Positions 8,236-60,277 of a stretch of 60,277 nucleotides of DNA are shown one piece after another (positions within the stretch are counted from its first letter, which is position 1; each line of letters opens with the position of its first letter). Made by a program: the position numbers and the translations under genes. Source of the DNA: Vezdaea acicularis (taxonomy: Eukaryota); contig JAPEUI010000100.1 in NCBI GenBank assembly GCA_026025075.1, forward strand, positions 1 to 60,277, given 5' to 3'. Below the pieces are notes generated by a model. It was given only the letters and a program-made list of their open reading frames with translations, had not been told where the DNA came from and searched no databases.

Positions 8236-9969
8236 ACGGGAGGCGCCTGTCTTGCGAGGGCCATAGTTGTGGGGATTTAAGGTGTGGGGTTGGCGGCCGC
8301 CCTCTTCCTGCTTTCCAAGGGGGCGCGCATGGAGGTTGTGTATAACACTATCAGAGTGGAATTGCTCAAACTTTGGAAGGTCGCCCATACAATGCCACAT
8401 TCATATAATGCAAAAATATACACATGACCAACCTCCACACTTCCGCACGCAATACATCAATCCTGGATATCGCCAGCCAACCACCAACTCCATTCCCTAC
8501 ACGCCTATCTCCACTTAAACCCCCCAACTTCGACAGAGCCTGTAAATATATCCCATCCCGAACTTCGCATCATCCGATACTATCCCAACCCCGCGTAAAA
8601 GCAACTACCAAGACCTTTCACGAACCCTGCTTACCCCTTTCCGCGAACCATTACACTAGCCCTCTATCTCAACGAGTAGATTAGACGGACGCAGCCTCTT
8701 GCCTTACAAACTCAGGACTTTGCGAAAGATGGGTCTGAGTGGGTGATGATTCGACGCTTCCTCTACGACAGAGACTCGTGGCATGGTGCTATGTGGAAAT
8801 CTGGGATTGGTGGGGTGATTTACCCCCTTTTCAGGTCTGGTTTTATAGATGGCGGCTTTCTTGGCGGATTCACCCTGCTGGGAGCCATCGAATCGTAATG
8901 TTTGCTATGCTAGAGACTGATATGTCAAAGGATAATGAACCCCTGGTAGCGATCAGCAACCTGCAGACCACCAGCTGCAGAGCCCATGGTCCCATAGGGG
9001 GGTTGATGAAGATCGTCCCCTCATGTGCATGTCCAGGTAATCCAGCGACGCTGAACGACGACAAGGGTGAAATTTTCCGTCGTCGTCCTCGCTCGACCTC
9101 GTTCTTACAGTCAAAAAGAGAGAGGGTTGGACTAGACCGCGCATCAAAGCTTTCATAGCGACAGGAGCATTCCAGAGAAACCTTTATATCTTCATACTCG
9201 ACCCCCTAAAAAGGCGTCATCTGTTCCCAACAGCTTCATGGCAACCCCGCACCACCCCACAGCGGCCCAGAATAGCAGTGTTTGACTAAAGCTGCCAGAG
9301 GCAAATAGCGTACCTGAACGGGCACAGCCGGAAAAAGAAGTGGAAATGCGATTGAAATTTGTGGCAAGGCTGGCCATAGTCGCAAAACATGAGTAATCTC
9401 GATTTTAGCTCGCGTCCGGCGGATGGAGTGGAGGTCTTGTTCTTGAGGCGGGGTAAGGGAGTTGGTCTTGATGCTGCCAGCCTTCCGACCTAGCGTCCCC
9501 ATAGAAGTGTATGCGCCTTTGTATATCTTCTCATAATACCCGTCCGGCTCTTTCCAACATCTTTTTTCAATACCAAAAGGGGGGAGGGGTGTTTTCCGCC
9601 TCGGCACTTGAGATATTTCTTTATTAGTTTTGCAACTTACATCAGGATTGCCCACGAGTGGAGTGAGCATTGTTAAAGACTGGTATAACCGATCTTTGTC
9701 ATGCCCAACATTTCAATAAAGTACATCCAGAGAAAGATTGTTGACTGAAGGCGACTTGATGATTGATAAAAAGGTCAAGATGCTAGTTCTCCACGGAGGT
9801 GATTATCAAGCTACCGCTGACAAAAACTGACAAAGTGAGAAGTAATAGGTAAATAAATGAAACGTGCTTAGCTTTTTCCAGAGCGGAAGAGAAATCAGAA
9901 TCGGTTGTAAGACATGTAAGTCTATCGGAGGTGAATAGGGTAGTGTCTTATCTGACGATAAATGAAGAC

Positions 9970-12900
9970 TCATTTCTTCTCCCAGTAGTTTGATTCGAGG
10001 AGTTTCACTACAGCCTCGTGCCTATACTTCCTCGCCCACGACAGCGCCGTATGTCCAGCGGTATCTACGGAGTCCGGCGCGGCGCCCCGCTCAAGGAGGA
10101 GCCGTACCACAGCCTCGTGCCCGTTCTCCGCCGCCCACGACAGCGCCGTCCGCCCTCCCTTGTCTCTGGGGTCTAGCGTAGCGCCCCGCTCGAGGAGGAG
10201 CCGCACCACAGCCTCGTGCCCATTCTCCGCCGCCCACGACAAGACCGTTCGTCCCCTGTCGTCTCTGGGGTCCAACGCAGCGCCCTGGTCAAGGAGGAGT
10301 CGCACTAGAGCTTCGTGCCCATTCCCTGCCGTCCGCCACAGCGCCGTCCGTTCCCATCGGTCCTTAGAGTTCGGCGCCGCGCCCCAGTCAAGGAGGAGCT
10401 GCACCACGGCCTCGTGTCTATTTCCCGCCGCCAATGACAGCGCCGTCCGTCTCCATCCGTCCCTGAAGTCCGGCGCGACGCCGCGCTCAAGGAGGTGTAG
10501 CACGAGAGCCTTATGCCCGTTCTCCGCTGCCCACGATAGTGCCGTCCATCCGTTATTGTCTATGGAGTCCGGTACGGCGCAGCGTTTAAGAAAAAGCCGT
10601 ACCACGGTCTCGTGCCCCTTTCCCGCAGCTCGTGACAGCGCCGTCTGCCCCTCCTTGTCTTTCATGCCTAGCGTGGCGCCCTTGTCGAAGAGGAGCTGTA
10701 CCACGGCCTCATGCCCTCGCCCCGCCGCCCATGACAGCGCCGTCCGCTCCAGGTCATCTATGGAGTCCGGAGCGGCGCCCCGCTCGAGGAGAAGTCGTAC
10801 CACGCTCTCATGACCATTCTCCGCCGCCCATGACAGCGCCGTCCGCTCCAGGTCATCTATGGAGTCCGGAGCGGCGCCCCCCACGAGAAGGAGTCGCACC
10901 ACAGCCTTATGCCCATTCTCCGCCGCCCCTGACAGCGCCGTGCGCCCTTGGTTGTTTTTAGAGTCTAGCGCGACGCTCCGCTCCACGAGGAGCCGCACCA
11001 CAGCTTCGCGCCCATTATTCGCCGCCCCGCATAGTGCCGTCTGCAGATATATGTCCTTGACATCCGGCGCGGCGCCCTGCTCGAGGAGGAGCCGTACCAC
11101 GGTCTCGTGACCATTCTCCGCCGCCTCAAACAGTGCCGTCCGCCCCCGGACATCTTTAGAGTTAAGTGTGGCGCCCCGCTCGAGGAGGTTCTGCACCGTG
11201 ACCTCGAGCCCCTTCTCCGCTGCCCATGACAGCGCCGTCCGGCCCCCATTATCTCTAGAGTCCGGCGCTGCGCCCCGCTCGAGGAGGACCCGCACCACAC
11301 TCTCATGCCCGTTCACCATCGCCCACCATAACGCTGTCCGCCCCTCATTGTCTTTCAAGTCTGACGTGGCGCCCCGCCCAAGGAGGAACCCTACCACATT
11401 CTCGCGCCCTGACCCCGCCGTCCACGACAACGCCGTCCGGCCCCCATTGTCTTTGAAGTCCGGCGCAGCCCCCTGACTGAGGAGGATCTGTGCTACGCGC
11501 ACGTGCCCACTCAATGACGCCCAGAACAGCGCTGTCCATCCAGATGCGTCCTTGGAATCCAGCGCGGCACCCTGCTGAAGGAGAAGCTGCACCACGGCCT
11601 CACGCCCTTCCACCGCCGCCCACGACAGCGCCGTCCGCTTCCCGTTGTCTTGGGAGTCTAGCGTGGCGCCCCGCTGAAGGAGGGACTGCACCACGGCCTC
11701 GTGTCCTTTTCCTGCCGCCAATGACAGCGCCGTCCTTCTCCATTCGTCTCTGAAGTCCGGCGTGACGCCACGCTCAAGGAGGAGTAGCACAAGAGTGTTA
11801 TGCCCGTTCTCCGCCGCCCACGACAGTGCCGTCCATCCGTTATTATCTATGGAGCCCGGCACCGCACAGTGTTTAAGGAAAAGCCGTACCACGGTCTCGT
11901 GCCCCTTTCCGGCAGCTCGTGACAGCGCCGTCTGCCCCTTCTTGTCCTTGGTGTCTAGCATGGCGCGCCGGTCGAGGAGGAGCCGTACCACGGCCTCGTG
12001 CCCATAGTCCGCCGCCCACATCAGCGGCGTCACCCCACAGCCGTCTACGAGGTCCAGCGCGGCACCCCACTCGATGAGGAGCCTCGCCACAGCCTTGTGC
12101 CCGTTTCCGGCCGCCCACGACAGCCCCGTCCGCTCGTCCTTGTCTTTGGAGTCTATCATGGCGTGCCCGTCGAGGAGGAGCTGCACCACAGCCTCATGCC
12201 CGTTCTTCGCCGCTATCATCAGCGCTGTGTTTCCACTGACATCTACTTTGAATTGTGCACCCTTCTGGATTAACAAAGATGTTATTTCTTCATGCCCGTT
12301 AGAAGCAGCAAGCCAAAGCGGCGTGTGGCCGGATTTTGATGCTCTGTCTATCATTGCCCCTTTGGTCTTCAAAAGTAACTTCACGATCTCTAAATGGCCT
12401 TTGCTTGCTGCATGGTGAAGAGCAGTACAGTCCTGTTCATCTAGTTTGTCAACTTCACAAACTAACAATAGACGCCGGACTACATCTTCAAAACCACGTC
12501 TTGACGCCAAATGAAGCGCTGGAAGATCTCCGCCAATCAATGGCAGATTGTAGAAATCCTTCGAGTGACGGCGAGAGTGTGTTTCAAATAGAATCCATAG
12601 AAGAGGCATATGACGTTCCTTTACGGCCCAACCAAAAAGCCCGTACAGGTGTGAAGTTCGCGACCGGCCACCACATATCCAGGGGTGAATTTTCCAAGAC
12701 TCGTTGGGATTCATGGCAAGCTGTTCGAATCTATGCCAAACAGTCGATTGATATTTTATGGATTTGGTCTGAGTGGCCCAGTTTGCAATAGCATAACCAA
12801 GAAATTTATAGTCCTCTGAAGTCGGCGCCGATGTTTGTTTCCCAGGTATTGTTATATGAACTGTGCTGCTGTGTTGTCTTGTTGTTGGAGCAATAAACCT

Positions 12901-53907: not shown

Positions 53908-55357
53908 TTATATAGTAGTCTGTGTCAAATGGGTATCTGTATCAACGCCTATTTTCCCTTTCACATTCCCACTTTCTGTAGAAGCCTTCTTCCTCTTGGC
54001 TTGAAACACTTTCTTCAACTTCTTCAGCCGCACCCAACGCTCCTCATCCCGCGCCAAACGAGCATTGGCATCTTCCTCAATGTTCTCGTCCTCAATACTG
54101 TAGGCCTCACTTGCCACATCAGACGTTCTGGGCTCCGATTCTTCTAGTAAGCGCTGCTGGCTCCTTAGCACACGTACTAGAATTTCCCACCCGGGCTGTC
54201 GGACTTGCAATATATCTTTCTTCGGTGTAGAGGATGAGCCCGCCTGCGAATCGGCATTGACCCAAGGACAATAGTCCCGATGCTCAGCGACGACGTCTAG
54301 ACGGTTCATCGAAGCTTCTCCTTCATCTACATCAACCGAAGAAATAAGTGGTCGAGAGAAAAGCCAGAGGCCAAGGCGACGAAAGCACGCGGCACAAGTC
54401 ACAAGGCCAGCGACGTGGCCTTCTTCTGCTTGCCAGCCAAGAAGCGCAAGTATAAGCGCTCCTTGGTTCGGGGCATCGACTTTACCCGTGATATTAGAAA
54501 CTAAGCTATCACAGGATGTAGCGGAATGCTCGCCTAGAGCCGGTGGATTTCGAAGAACAGCGTTGAAATCAGGACTTTCCGGGTGAGAGATATTTGTTGG
54601 AAGTGCGGAAGCTACTGATATTATCGATGCATATCGCGAACGAAGAGCAGCGAGCGATATGGCTGGCTGGTTTAGAGGTAAACGGTAGATGGCATCATCG
54701 CAGCCCCGTCGTTGCCAGAGACAATGCTCGTCATGCTCCGTAACCATCATCTCCACATAGCGATCGACAAGCTGCTCGTCTATGCCCGTATCAGCTGAAG
54801 CAGCAAGGGAAGATTACATAGAAAATCCACTTACAGGCGCTGATCTTCCATTCATCTCCCTCCTCATCTTCTGGCAGCCCCTCTGCCTGCTCAAGACTCA
54901 TTCGTGTCCTATCCTCGAGATTGATATAGACCTCCTTTCCACAACCACTGACGCACCCCACTCTCTCCCTACCAACACAGCTCCATCCTCTTTTTGCCCA
55001 CTGCACTTCGTTAGCCCTTGCGGGTTTCACGCTCCATTTGTCTACATGTCTAAATGTCTTCAACCGTCCTAGAAATTGACCCCTGTCCCACGGCGCGTAA
55101 TTGGGCAAAGACTGTTTTGCTGCAGGCACCTTGATGATTGATGACGCTGCTTGAGTCCCGGGCTCGGGTGTGCTTGCTATGGATTTGGCAGAGGCTATGA
55201 CCTCAGACGCTGGCCTGGCAAGCCGTCGCCTCTTGGTTTGCGACTCTAGGTTCGCCGGTAATGTCGTGCTCGATGCGTTATCCCTTGAATCTGATAGAGG
55301 TCGGTTGGTAGATAGAGATTCTAGGAGTCTTTGAAACTTGCGCTTAGATGCGTACAT
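53908..55357 (-). CDS. rsm1: C3HC zinc-finger mRNA export factor (Rsm1/NIPA/Pml39-like); intron 54780-54834
   Basis: YAPWDRGQFLGRLKTF, WAKRGWSC, HDEHCLWQRRGC, CAACFRRLGLW, EHRDYCPW. Confidence 0.85.
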
Positions 55358-55451
55358 TGCTGAAAAGCGACTCAAAGTTTATTTTCTTAAGAGATGTGTA
55401 GTCTTCGGTGTTGTTCTATACTTCGCGTAGCTTTTGAGCGCCTGTGAGTTT

Positions 55452-55499
55452 GGACCCGGATAGAATGCAGAGAAACTATCGCTTTAGCGCTGCGCCGTC
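55452..55499 (+). repeat. Left terminal inverted repeat of the MULE
   Basis: GGACCCGGATAGAATGCAGAGAAACTATCGCTTTAGCGCTGCGCCGTC. Confidence 0.95.
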
Positions 55500-55553
55500 G
55501 CTTTGACCCTTGCTGTATTTATGCAAATACTGAGCCTCCCCCTTCAAATCGAC

Positions 55554-55647
55554 GGGCGCGTGGCCCAGGGATTAGGGTGAGCGGTTGGCCGCTGCTCCTC
55601 GACCCCCTTGGTTGCGGGTTCAAATCCCGTACGGGTAGTTCTATTTT
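55554..55647 (+). ncRNA. tRNA-like Pol III cassette (A-box, B-box, T4 terminator); not a canonical tRNA
   Basis: TGGCCCAGGGATTAGG A-box/D-arm (GCCC/GGGT stem); AGCGG/CCGCT stem with only a 4-nt loop; T-arm GCGGG-TTCAAAT-CCCGT; TTTT at 55644-55647. No adjacent acceptor stem. Confidence 0.5.
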
Positions 55648-55873
55648 CAGGTCAAGCTGTCTCACCGTTCCGGCTAGGCTGGGTAAGACGGGTGAGTCAC
55701 TGTGGTAAATCAGGGGGGTGGGGTCCGCTATATAAGAAATTTCATTCATTTGAAATTTCTAACAACTGAAATATTTTTCAGTAGAAACTTTCTGGGGGCA
55801 AATAGAACTACCCACACGCCGTCGGTTTTTGAAAAATTTTTATAACCATTGTCAACCTAGCTCACTCAATACA

Positions 55874-57219
55874 ATGAATCTCAACCTGGAAATCGACGCT
55901 CTGCTTGCCACAGGCGCTTTTGACGACGTTCAGAGCAACAGCGGTCAGCGTCAAGAGGTGCGACGCCGTCTAATACGATGGAGACATAACGCAAAAGATA
56001 TAGAAACGATCATCAGCCCTATTACCTATAAAGATTTGAAGAAAACCTGGCGCAAGAAGGAACATTTCGAACTCGATCCCTCCCAATTGCCAAAGTTCAC
56101 GCGCATTACCAGCTCTAATATTCATCACCAAATCATCGACACGCATGGCAATCTTCTTGTCTACCGCTATCAAATACCCATGTCTTTTGTCGATAAGCTC
56201 TTGGAGACAACAAACAGTCTACCACCGGTTAAACCTGTTGAAGGTCCAAGATGTAATGACTGTACTAGCCCCTAGCTCCTATCAAGTCTTTTGGGATGAA
56301 TAAGGGGTAAGGAGGCTAGCTTCGCTTCAGCTTCGCTTCTGCTTCGCCTAGCCCCCTAGCACTTAGCATAAGGCCAGGTGGTCCTTAGATCACCTGACAT
56401 AGACGAGCGTAGCTATCAGAGCTGCCGCTTCCCTTAGGATAGCTCTTCAGCAATCAACTCATCTATTCATCTGAATAACTAGTAGGAAGACATCCTCGCT
56501 TTGCTTCGTCTGACCTTTCTCCTATCTTGCCTTACCTCGTCTTGCCTCGCCCCAGTACTATCACTGCACCTAGTCTTCGTCTGCAAGTTCTTGAGTCCTT
56601 GGGAGTTAGCTCACACGCCTACAGACCCTCGCTCCTTGACGAAGCACTGGCCTGTCCTTACACAAGAGGCAGCTTTATGGTACGCCATTATGCAGCATGG
56701 GCGGACTATATGCCGGAGCCAAAATCGAGCAAGGAATATCGCGATCAGCTACCGTATTCAAAGGAATTTCTCGATAACAATCAATCGTTATTCAATCGGC
56801 TATCAGATGATCTCCGTCTCATCTATCCTACCATGTACACCAAATATAAAAGCGTTCAAAAGTTCTATCCCGAAGGTGTACGCTCTCTTGCTGGAGTATG
56901 GCATGGTATTGCGGTTAATCAAGGACAAGATGATGCTGAAGGTACTGGAACCCATCAAGATTGGCAAGATTATTATTACGGATTTAACACTGTACTACCA
57001 TATGGTACTTACACTGGAGGCGCTCTTATTCTTTGGCAACTTGGTGTTATTTACGAACTTCAGCCAGGTGATGTGATAATGTTCTTTGGAGCTCTTATTG
57101 CGCATAACACAGAAGGGGTAACAGCTGGAGAAAGAAATTCAGTGGACTTGTTTGTGCATAAGAGCACTCTGGATTGGAAAAAGCGTTTGATGACAGGTAA
57201 ACAGGTATTTTCTAAATAG
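55874..57219 (+). pseudogene. TET/JBP-like 2OG-Fe(II) dioxygenase (about 309 aa when reconstructed), disrupted by a solo LTR
   Basis: Removing 56252-56667 fuses ..VEGPR|GSFMVRHY.. in frame. HxD (THQDWQD), GGALILWQLGVIYELQPGDVIMF, distal His (AHN) and RxS (ERNSV). TATATAA at about 55729. Confidence 0.8.
56252..56662. mobile_element. Solo LTR 1 (411 bp)
   Basis: Ends TGTAATGAC...GTCCTTACA (imperfect inverted repeat). 5-bp TSD CAAGA at 56247-56251 and 56663-56667. Confidence 0.9.
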
Positions 57220-57268
57220 ATCAAATAGTTAATCCTGATGTGGAGAAGAATAAAAGTTATTTGATGGT

Positions 57269-59814
57269 TTAATCCTGTTTATCTTCAACTATATCTAAGT
57301 TCATTGACTCCGGCAATAGTTTATCAACATTGACAAAACTTAGGTTTGGCTCCGATGCTATCAAATCTCTCACGCTATGTTGCATAAGAGGACCAGTTAC
57401 TTTGGATAAGCCATCAATCCAAGTGTTCACTACTGTTGCTGCAGTATCAGGTTCTAAGACACTTGCGGCTTCCTCTATTCGGTAATACGCAGAACGAAGA
57501 CTGTCTTGTACCTAAGCCAAATAGATAAGCTATTATGCCAACATGATGAAGAGTAAGATCATACCTCTCGCAACTTTAGTTTTCTCTGTTCGGGTGCTCC
57601 TATTATTCCGTGTACATCCGAATGGATAAAATCTCTTCTTAATAGTTAGCAGAGTTGGTGACAAAGCTATGTACTCACTTTGTCATGCTTTCATAAACTT
57701 CCATGCCGCTGTCCTCAAACATGAAGGTAAATAGTTTCCAATCAGAATCTTTTAAAACTCCATAGAGTAGCTCTTGCTGCCAGATATGCTGACATGGCAG
57801 TTGGTATTGTCTCCAGAACAAACAATCGCAGGTGACTTCCTCTCCAAAAGGCTTCATATCATCCGTATCAGTGGATTCTTTAGCAAGTCGCAACTGTTGT
57901 ACCATTAACAATTGCACAGGGTAAAGTAATTGACGCAGCGCAGGCCATTCAGCTATTTCTGAAACCATTTTGGTCCGAAAATCACGCTTTGCTTGGTCTG
58001 CGCGAGCTGCCCATTGACTGTTGACTTCAACTAAAGTTCTTAAAATTCCGCAAAGAGAAAAGCGAGAACGATTTGAAGCAGTGGCATATGTTTTTAAAGC
58101 ATTATGCCATGATTCTACAGAGTTTGTTGTGGTAACCTAAAGAGTTATGAGTAAAATTTGGACATTGGATGGAAAACATACTTGTAACAACAAGCACGAA
58201 TGAGTTCGGCTGTAATGTGCTCAAATCCGCTTAGTATCTGCCCATTCTTTTTGAATATACGCTTTCTCCTGTCTTGGAGCAGCTTGAATTGCGGCAGCAA
58301 TACTTTGATCGCAACCAAACTCTGTACGACGTGCACATAAGGCCGATAGTAGATGTTTTTGGGCTTCAGAAGAACTCTTTAGCCTACGGTTAAGCGTTCT
58401 CATTGAATGCACTCGACAAAGCAGATGTGTAACCTCTGTTTCACCATCTTCAAGCTTATAAAAAGCTTCTCGGATTGCTCTTTGCTCTACCGCTGAATCA
58501 TCTGTAATGATATAGCGCAGTCTCCAAGACCGACACCATTGTTTAATGGTTCGTAATCCTTGTGCAAGTACAAAAGAATCTTCCTTCCTACTGAAATTAG
58601 CTTTGTTGCAAATGGAAGCTTGAACTTACATTGTCAATAGATGCGCGCATGGCAACCAGGACCCATGCTCTGTGCGTACCATGATTGTGTGCAAAAACCA
58701 TTGTAAAGCATTCGTTTTATGTGTTGAATCCATTAAAGCAAGATGTCTGTCAGGGCACGAGTGTCCTAACACGTCAGGGCACTAGGCGTCCTGATATAGT
58801 ATGTGGATCAAAGAGTTGTATTTCTTCTATCTAGGAGGATACGCTATATATACGAGTCGTCACGTGCCAGTCACGACTGCCCGGTCAAGACAGCGCGGCA
58901 AGCGCTGTCTGTTGTAGAGCAGTCGCATACCGCATAGCGCTGCCCCTATAGGCAGGCGCTATACGAAGGCTGTCCATATTAGTATTGCTGCGTAGTTACC
59001 CCCTACCCCTGTATCCCGTCGCTACCCCCCTGCTCCCATATGCAGGTGTCCCACAACAATGTCCACGATATCGCAACATTTCAATATGAGCGGGCAAAGC
59101 AAAAACTAAACCTGGAGACTCTTCTCCGTCTGGTCGTATGCAATCAATGTTTTCAACAAACCAATCTATTTTTTCCAAATACTCTGCAGCTTCCATACGT
59201 TGTAACTGCCAAGGACTTTCATATCCAGATACTCGAAGGTCTGGTTTAGCTTTTCGAGCTGCTGCACCAGCATTTTTGACGTCGGTACGACTTAAAAATT
59301 CACCACCTGCTTCTTCAAGCTGACAACGTCCATTCGGGTCACGAGATAACCCTGTGATAGCTCTGAATATGGTGGCAGGTTCATATAAACGAGCACCTTC
59401 AATGGCAGCGATCTGCATAACTTTTGATGGTCGTTTGATAGCGTCTGAATGCCTTATATCATGACTGTGTAAGGGCTCGATGGTGTCTGTTTGCCTTGTT
59501 GCAGTATATAAAGAGGTTATTGGATCAAACATTATCTTCATCCGTGCACTGCAAGTTTTTCCTTGACGTCTAGATCGTACACGGATACTTTTACCTGTAC
59601 CTTGTAAGGGACAGGTTTTTCGTTGTAGTCTGCATAACCAATACTCAGTGTGACCGCCATTCTTTGTCTTTTCACATCTATTGCGGACCCAAACATTATC
59701 AACATAAGGCCAGTACTCTTCTTGTTCAGCCTTGCTCATTGTACAAGGGATTGAAAGCTCAAATAAACTCTCTCGCCATCTTGAAAGATCTTTTGGATTG
59801 TTGAGAAGAGTCAT
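57269..59814 (-). pseudogene. MULE transposase (FAR1/WRKY-like N-terminus, DDE domain, SWIM), disrupted by a solo LTR and a premature stop
   Basis: C..C..HSH N-terminal zinc domain; LALMDSTHKTN (after LTR removal); YIITDDSAVEQRA; LLCRVHSMR; VTTTNSVESWH; SWIM CDCLFWRQYQLPCQH. In-frame TGA at 58221-58223; several short introns. Confidence 0.88.
58748..59058. mobile_element. Solo LTR 2 (311 bp), apparently unrelated to LTR 1
   Basis: Ends TGTCAGGGCAC...GTGTCCCACAACA. 5-bp TSD ATGTC at 58743-58747 and 59059-59063. Removal restores RYRGH|LALMDSTH. Confidence 0.9.
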
Positions 59815-60102
59815 TGTTTAAGAACTACCTTGTTATGAGGATTTGGATGTATAAGAATATTGTCTGCAAAGAATCTATTCAGCAAGAGGATGACAGCTGT
59901 GACTACGTTCAATGATGCTGCATCAATGAGGCATCTTACAATCTCATGATGCACGTTAAGGGGTTTAGAAAAATGACGCTAAGCCTGAAGCGCACATCCA
60001 ATCTTAAAATATTCAAATAGGGTTAGACGCTGAGGCTGATGTTCATAATTGTGCTGCACAACTCAATGATTCAAAGCAGTTAGTCTACTGTGACTAACAT
60101 GA

Positions 60103-60150
60103 GACGGCGCAGCGCTAAAGCTTTAGTTTCTCTGCATTCTATCCGGGTCC
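60103..60150 (-). repeat. Right terminal inverted repeat of the MULE
   Basis: Reverse complement reads GGACCCGGATAGAATGCAGAGAAACTAAAGCTTTAGCGCTGCGCCGTC. Confidence 0.95.
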
Positions 60151-60277
60151 GTGAGTTTACGCTTGCATAACCTTAATACTATGCGCAAGGCTTGGACTAA
60201 TTGGGCGTAAGAGATGTCAGCGGCGTTTGCCAGAACTTTGTATCTAAATACATCACTCGGCCGGATCTCGACCACAT

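Follow-up and report, generated by a model that had tools for sequence, protein, structure and literature searches.

The 290 nt (55543-55832) between the left end of a Mutator-like transposon of Vezdaea acicularis and its TET/JBP-like cargo gene carry a tRNA likeness that is genuine but degenerate, set within a long DNA palindrome. Our preferred reading, to which we give an even chance of being correct, is that a tRNA gene survives here as a relic within the cargo gene's palindromic promoter region and acts, if at all, at the DNA level. We observed a defined anatomy, a non-random tRNA likeness, folding that is symmetric between the two strands, a polymorphic transposon as the setting and one sibling copy. 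The original prediction had described a tRNA-like Pol III cassette in a multi-hairpin structure and had proposed a chromatin insulator or a structured noncoding RNA. Its placement of the cassette next to the left TIR, on the inner side, and immediately before the TET-like gene agrees with the coordinates, as the stretch starts 44 nt inside the left TIR and stops 42 nt before the TET-like ATG at 55874. Positions refer to the window, the whole 60,277-nt (60-kb) stretch of DNA that was analysed, and the features are collected in the table.

Features of the transposon, of the cassette at its left end and of the repeats nested in it, in window coordinates
Feature	Positions	Strand	Basis
Target-site duplication, left copy, GTGAGTTT	55444-55451		identical 8 nt at 60151-60158; empty-site contigs
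Left TIR, 48 nt	55452-55499	+	96% complementary to 60103-60150; match to the X2 sibling contig begins exactly at 55452
Spacer between TIR and cassette, with a TA-rich near-palindrome ~25-38 nt before the start of the tRNA-like unit	55500-55542	+	sequence
Outer palindrome arm, left; coincides in part with the tRNA-like unit's leader and 5′ acceptor strand	55543-55563	+	RNAfold pairing with 55812-55832
Degenerate tRNA-like unit, 84 nt	55555-55638	+	ARAGORN, pair list, shuffling controls; Rfam T-arm only
A-box-like motif TGGCCCAGGGA, imperfect	55561-55571	+	sequence; off TRGCNNAGNGG
B-box GGTTCAAATCC, within the T-arm hairpin 55614-55630	55617-55627	+	sole GGTTCRANNCC match in the window; Rfam T-arm
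Inner palindrome arm, left, GGGTAGTTCTATTT; includes the tRNA-like unit's 3′ acceptor strand and trailer	55633-55646	+	perfect complement of 55800-55813
T4 run, beginning 6 nt past the tRNA-like 3′ end	55644-55647	+	sequence; terminator role putative
Palindrome core, 153 nt, with its own hairpins	55647-55799		fold -45.5 kcal/mol, z -3.00, 0/200 shuffles
Consensus TATA box TATATAAG, oriented to the TET gene, 138 nt before the ATG	55729-55736	+	TATAWAWR match; promoter use putative
Perfect 10-bp hairpin with 6-nt loop; 8-nt palindrome GAAATTTC in each arm	55735-55760		sequence, fold
Perfect 7-bp hairpin with 4-nt loop; holds a T5 run	55765-55782		sequence, fold
Inner palindrome arm, right, AAATAGAACTACCC	55800-55813		perfect complement of 55633-55646
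Outer palindrome arm, right; abuts the inner arm, T5 run 55826-55830 at its end	55812-55832		RNAfold, sequence
TET/JBP-like cargo gene	55874-57219	+	Pfam Tet_JBP; annotated protein P0001; tblastn of P0002
Nested high-copy repeat, 411 bp, interrupting the TET gene	56252-56662		depth 412 vs ~9 for single-copy flank
MULE-type transposase gene with SWIM zinc finger	57356-59814	-	SWIM 21.4 bits vs cutoff 19.6; tblastn
Second high-copy segment, depth up to 176	58806-58972		within a ~310-nt gap of the transposase alignment (58743-59055)
Right TIR	60103-60150	-	inverted-repeat search
Target-site duplication, right copy	60151-60158		8 nt as at 55444-55451; empty-site contigs

The host element is a MULE-type transposon of 4,699 bp (55452-60150), and its species is an ascomycete of the Pezizomycotina, order Vezdaeales; isolates of its genus are reported to have been established (PMC13616976). 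It combines 48-nt TIRs at 96%, an 8-bp duplication with an empty site, a SWIM finger and colinearity with MULE-domain proteins, the features by which an element is recognised as Mutator-like; target duplications of such elements range from 8 to 11 bp. The TIRs are the only pair of long inverted repeats in the window (55452-55499 / 60103-60150), and by tblastn the transposase gene is colinear with three proteins that have the Pfam MULE domain (P0008, P0092 and P0006). Copies of the locus were sought among the contigs of four DNA runs from one moss metagenome study (X1-X4, shares 0.07-0.15), in which contig depths are low and many contigs are only one read in length. Contigs of X1 (12,480 nt) and X4 fuse 55443 to 60151 and share 8 letters at the join. 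These contigs show the locus free of the element, and the insertion is therefore polymorphic.

The product of the cargo gene is identical to an annotated 367-aa protein (P0001) of a metagenome-assembled genome of V. acicularis. Its Pfam Tet_JBP match (E 2.7e-8) scores 33.6 bits, slightly below the cutoff of 34.9, and tblastn of a relative, P0002, aligned it at 55868-56239 and 56662-57201. The 411-bp repeat that interrupts the gene starts with TGTAA, ends with TTACA and has a 5-nt duplication, CAAGA, on both sides; it looks like a solo LTR on these features, and it is absent from an X3 contig, in which 56246 is fused to 56663. Part of the repeat is read through in P0001, giving an insert of ~56 residues that is missing in P0002. 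The second high-copy segment, in the transposase gene, seems to belong to the same repeat family, since contigs elsewhere join this segment to the interior of the 411-bp repeat.

Searches for relatives of the element beyond this locus gave little. A protein database search with the TET sequence against longer proteins found no relative, and none of 26 pattern matches to the TET alignment in prokaryote genome contigs was confirmed. In viral contigs the transposase pattern had 3 matches with none confirmed, and the TET alignment had a single weak locus (L010; 33% over 52 residues), which is without a tRNA. Nine metagenome loci that match the first 18 nt of the TIR were considered as siblings and set aside as chance matches, because the match extends over just 18-21 nt and no TET relative is encoded.

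Several observations on the neighbourhood and on the transposase stand apart from the cassette. The transposon lies ~70 nt beyond the 5′ end of the first reading frame of a host gene on the minus strand (53908-55375) that encodes a NuBaID/zf-C3HC protein (Pfam E 5.9e-28 and 6.7e-17). Two of nine proteins scanned, P0036 and P0057, are relatives of 58996-59814 (minus strand) that join the N-terminal region of the transposase to a RibD C-terminal domain without the MULE domain; they may be a domesticated or mis-joined form of the transposase. Between 55300-60277 of the window and the metagenome contigs, transitions prevail, with C>T and G>A in excess; for the X1 contig the differences from the window are 29 C>T, 18 G>A, 12 A>G, 9 T>C and 7 transversions. 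This transition excess would fit repeat-induced point mutation of repeated copies.

Each of the predicted sequence features of the cassette is present, with the letters and positions stated for it. GGGTAGTTCTATTT and AAATAGAACTACCC are exact complements and form the perfect 14-bp inverted repeat; the perfect 10-bp and 7-bp hairpins have the coordinates and letters given for them; and the imperfect outer helix (about 55544-55563 with 55812-55832) is paired in the minimum-energy structure of RNAfold. All three of the 14-, 10- and 7-bp helices are perfectly Watson-Crick paired. In 2000 mononucleotide shuffles of the 290 nt a perfect 14-nt inverted repeat never arose, the largest being one of 13, seen once. 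Taken as composite arms, the outer and inner arms are ~35 nt long, imperfect, and surround the 153-nt core.

The plus strand of the stretch folds at -115 kcal/mol (z -4.84), with 0 of 200 shuffles as good, in the RNAfold check that had been proposed for the region. The minus strand gives -101.1 kcal/mol (z -6.64), again with 0 of 200 shuffles as good, and under DNA folding parameters the two strands reach -54.7 and -49.8 kcal/mol. Because both strands fold equally well, the stretch is a DNA palindrome and not a strand-specific RNA. The symmetric folding, the perfect Watson-Crick helices and the unfavourable cloverleaf described below speak against a structured RNA as such. At the other end of the element, the fold of the sequence in front of the transposase gene is unremarkable (z +0.52, 138/200 shuffles as good), and we found no repeats common to the cassette and the right end of the element.

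The tRNA-like unit occupies the left part of the palindrome. ARAGORN calls it as a tRNA-Ala(GGC) with a long variable region. The acceptor has 5 of 7 pairs, the D stem 4 bp and the anticodon stem 5 bp with the loop TTGGCCG; the variable region of 17 nt is unpaired, and the T-arm has 5 bp plus TTCAAAT. The acceptor stem, which had been described as missing, is thus present in ARAGORN's pairing, and it falls short of seven pairs by two mismatches, G55555/A55637 and G55558/G55634. The T-arm is canonical as predicted, with a full 5-bp stem and a TTCRANN loop (GCGGG TTCAAAT CCCGT, 55614-55630). It is matched by the Rfam tRNA family (RF00005) at 55610-55630 in a relaxed search of 121 nt, a match that is absent from a wider search. 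The Rfam comparison that had been suggested thus recovers the T-arm, at 13.2 bits, and yields no full cloverleaf, the score being below the gathering score of 29; at the gathering score the whole window has 0 matches to any family.

Two controls show that the likeness is not what random sequence yields. ARAGORN made 1 call among 101 sequences of 60 kb (100 block-shuffled windows and the reversed window), and when the T-arm and the 3′ side were held fixed and the upstream 70 nt were shuffled, the call was kept in 14 of 2000 cases. On the strength of these controls we attribute the likeness to tRNA ancestry and not to chance. The four G-U pairs in the cloverleaf make the tRNA-like reading specific to the plus strand. 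The cloverleaf itself is not favoured: at -21.6 against a minimum of -36.6 kcal/mol it is 15 kcal/mol worse and has an ensemble probability of 5e-12. The best fold of the unit is one long hairpin, and the unit alone folds no better than shuffles (z -1.36, 19/200 as good). Position 37, usually a purine in tRNAs, is C. We read the unit as a tRNA-derived sequence in advanced decay that retains the outline of a Pol III gene.

The B-box that had been placed in the T-arm is there, GGTTCAAATCC matching GGTTCRANNCC, and it is the one such match in the window where 1.06 are expected by chance. The D stem of 4 bp and an A-box-like motif are present, the latter with its start 56 nt from the start of the B-box; TGGCCCAGGGA fits TRGCNNAGNGG except at the last consensus position, and the 3 exact matches to this consensus in the window lie elsewhere. 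Both consensus forms, with the A-box 30-60 nt upstream of the B-box, are those in general use. The predicted TTTT after the tRNA-like cassette was found as the T4 run at 55644-55647, a possible weak Pol III stop, and T5 runs follow further on at 55774, 55826 and 55837. Within the spacer, the TA-rich near-palindrome could act as an upstream Pol III element. TFIIIC binding at the surviving B-box may have persisted or been lost.

The layout of the two arms bears on how the palindrome arose. On the left, the outer and inner arms are 69 nt apart (55564-55632), and these 69 nt are the tRNA-like body; on the right, the two arms are contiguous (55800-55832). In the right arm, 14 of 14 positions are complementary, in reverse, to the trailer and 3′ acceptor, and right after them comes a sequence nearly complementary to the leader and 5′ acceptor. 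Since the leader and trailer pieces are contiguous on the right and 69 nt apart on the left, the right arm resembles an inverted duplicate of what flanks the tRNA-like unit, with the body left out. GG stands on both sides of the break in this layout, which would fit a microhomology-mediated deletion or a template switch.

Three further candidates and searches within the cassette gave nothing of weight. The 24 nt at 55531-55554 resemble the beginning of the TET reading frame (75%), a likeness that a rough estimate puts within chance, and a 76-aa minus-strand frame over the cassette has no homologue in the protein database. Of the 29 window matches of the 7-mer CGCCGTC, two fall at the inner ends of the TIRs, one in the cassette's right arm and one in the TET gene, 4 in all; as a subterminal repeat for transposase binding it was rejected as too weak, most of the other window matches being in a tandem array. 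This array (9898-12276) is GC-rich, has 22 copies with a 99-nt period at 60-76% identity to a reference copy, and contains many of the 29 matches.

The core of the palindrome may provide promoter elements of the cargo gene. A consensus TATA box, TATATAAG, is oriented toward the TET gene, and two small AT-rich hairpins come directly after it. TATAWAWR has 14 matches in the window on both strands together, TATATAAG being one of them, and the chance of one plus-strand match in the 375 nt before the ATG is ~0.04, which is only modestly unlikely. A leader folding at -115 kcal/mol would be a poor 5′ UTR, and for this reason we expect the TET transcript to start past the TATA box, inside or after the small hairpins. 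Right after the TATA box, the two copies of GAAATTTC in the 10-bp hairpin stand 16 nt apart; this palindrome has the form GAAnnTTC, which is reminiscent of heat-shock-type sites.

The cassette is retained in another copy of the element. A contig of 335 nt from X2 matches the window over the 147 nt of 55452-55598 with 6 differences, whereas the 186 nt with which it begins are unlike the flank in the window. A second X2 contig, of 151 nt, covers 55547-55697, also with 6 differences. Because the X2 flank does not fit the window and the TIR matches from its first base, there is at least one other copy, either at a different site or with a strongly diverged flank. In this, the only sibling seen, TIR, spacer and tRNA-like part follow one another as in the window, at ~96% identity (55452-55697), and among the contigs of the four runs, of which none lies over 55798-56122, we saw no sibling lacking the cassette or its right arm. 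Over the cassette the sibling diverges by ~4%, not less than the element's coding parts do (6/412, 9/194 and 5/250 nt). An identity of ~96% would be compatible with a relic and with a working Pol III module alike.

The original prediction had also raised the case of an independent SINE or MITE found outside MULEs, and no such copy was seen in the window or in the contigs of the four runs. In the four runs, contig depth over 55466-55797 does not exceed 4.2, similar to other low-copy parts of the element. With this depth against 412 for the nested repeat, the cassette is not an abundant independent repeat in these runs. The 60-kb window has no second copy of the cassette. A 22-mer from the cassette had 0 matches in prokaryote genome contigs and 0 in viral contigs, and a gapped two-arm pattern of the palindrome had 0 in viral contigs.

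We propose that the 290 bp would serve as the upstream control region of the TET/JBP cargo gene in this MULE-type transposon. A tRNA gene or a tRNA-derived fragment would have entered the element along with the promoter of the cargo gene, by capture of the MULE type. We infer this capture step; no parent tRNA gene sharing the leader or trailer was found. A later inverted partial duplication of the leader and trailer would then have given rise to the right arm; capture followed by duplication is the order we take to be probable. The unit would no longer yield a tRNA, any present effect would be at the DNA level, and the core would provide the TATA box (55729-55736) as well as the region where the TET transcript probably starts.

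Other explanations share parts of this evidence. A working Pol III/TFIIIC module carried by the transposon, the idea of the original prediction, would have its A- and B-boxes recruit TFIIIC, and we regard it as unlikely. Such a module might yield a short tRNA-like RNA, either ~90 nt long to the T4 run or 220-280 nt long with read-through to the T5 runs and so including the hairpins, or it might act as a tDNA-type barrier that shields the adjacent TET gene from heterochromatin. tDNAs and B-box sites have barrier activity in budding and fission yeast, and a location between the element's end and an anti-silencing-type gene would suit such a role. In favour of this explanation are a perfect B-box in a canonical T-arm, an A-box-like motif 56 nt upstream, a T run 6 nt past the 3′ end, a TA-rich stretch ~25-38 nt upstream, an upstream half that is non-randomly tRNA-like (14/2000) and retention in a sibling copy with a different flank. 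Selection for TFIIIC/Pol III binding, and not slow decay, could have kept this complete layout. However, one B-box per 60 kb is expected by chance, the A-box is off consensus, a run of four T stops yeast Pol III weakly, the cloverleaf does not form a stable fold, the structure is symmetric between the strands and the sibling divergence of the cassette (~4%) is not below that of the coding parts. None of the findings refutes this idea, and its support goes no further than the motifs and their retention in one close sibling. The bolder form, in which a cut-and-paste transposon has its own tDNA-like TFIIIC/Pol III module beside a TET/JBP gene as a portable barrier or a source of structured Pol III RNA, seems to us decidedly doubtful; if true, it would be a second, independent defence against silencing wherever the element lands.

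The tRNA likeness might instead be a by-product of stacked GC-rich hairpins, the stretch being nothing other than a Pol II promoter and 5′ leader composed of palindromic binding sites for factors. This would account for the TATA box and AT-rich palindromes (GAAATTTC twice) close upstream of the ATG, for the single long hairpin as best fold of the tRNA-like unit and for Rfam detecting the T-arm only. The ARAGORN controls (1/101 and 14/2000), a T-arm with the full tRNA stem and loop and a T run positioned as in a tRNA gene argue against it and make it quite unlikely in our estimate. We also considered a nested non-autonomous foldback or MITE-like element with ~35-nt terminal inverted repeats, lying between the TIR and the TET gene, whose left repeat later gained a tRNA-derived piece. 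The long imperfect terminal inverted arms do delimit the 290 bp exactly, folding is strong and symmetric on both strands, and the same transposon copy took other nested insertions, at 56252-56662 and 58806-58972. However, no target-site duplication surrounds 55543 / 55832 and the flanks differ, which is evidence against a separate nested element; the 60-kb window holds no second copy, contig depth in the four runs is low, and the sibling contig passes unbroken from the TIR into the cassette. Of the explanations set out here it is the one we find least probable.

tRNA-derived SINE families are known in Magnaporthe and Fusarium, and the cassette shares with them a tRNA-related head with A- and B-boxes. 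It was rejected as a SINE of this kind, as it has neither a SINE body nor a tail, is not flanked by a target duplication, occurs once in the window, reaches a depth of at most 4.2 in the four runs and lies inside a DNA transposon. The tRNA-like/miRNA units of gammaherpesviruses, which are transcribed by Pol III, likewise have a tRNA-like head followed by hairpins and T runs on one strand. Here, in contrast, the stems of 7-10 bp are too short for Dicer-type precursors, the larger helices are DNA palindromes, and a T4 run stands between head and hairpins.

Mutator-like elements are known from the plant literature to capture host fragments, as Pack-MULEs do. Like captured tRNA pseudogenes and host fragments in MULEs, the cassette is a host-type piece between the TIR and the genes that is mobile with the element and has no working-gene features. 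It differs from Pack-MULE capture in that here capture is our reconstruction, the piece is a Pol III-type gene and not an mRNA fragment, and it lies within a palindrome that apparently formed after the capture. Barriers built on tDNAs or TFIIIC sites include the tDNA at HMR in budding yeast, the centromere tDNAs and COC sites of fission yeast, mouse B2 and the human MIR and tDNA insulators. Like these, the cassette sets a B-box in a tRNA-like context, with possible flanking chromatin on one side and on the other a gene that would profit from activity; it differs in being known from sequence alone and in being carried by a cut-and-paste DNA transposon of the Pezizomycotina. To our knowledge, such barriers have not been described in that setting, and we know of no earlier case of a DNA transposon that brings its own barrier element. 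At the level of titles and abstracts, a literature search returned neither a case of such a barrier nor a fungal DNA transposon described as containing a tRNA-like unit. Should TFIIIC still bind the B-box, the element would be a DNA transposon with its own barrier and a demethylase-type gene, and would bear on silencing escape in fungi. If the cassette is a relic only, it is a small example of host-type Pol III sequence in a Mutator-like element and of palindrome formation near a transposon end.

The closest known systems to the element as a whole are the fungal DNA transposons that pair a transposase with a TET/JBP dioxygenase, surveyed by Kojima 2025 (PMC12730594), where the pairing is read as escape from methylation-based silencing. 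In its abstract, that survey names ten TET-carrying transposon lineages, none of them Mutator-like, in rusts, mushrooms and Pezizomycetes only and with no Vezdaeales; the word 'tRNA' occurs 0 times in the main text, and a supplementary table may hold more lineages (PMC12730594). The host element is the more solid novelty, a polymorphic Mutator-like carrier of TET/JBP from a lineage absent from the abstract of the 2025 survey. It shares the pairing of transposase and TET/JBP with the transposons named in the abstract of that survey, and differs from them in being Mutator-like, in coming from the Vezdaeales and in having a tRNA-like unit beside its cargo gene.
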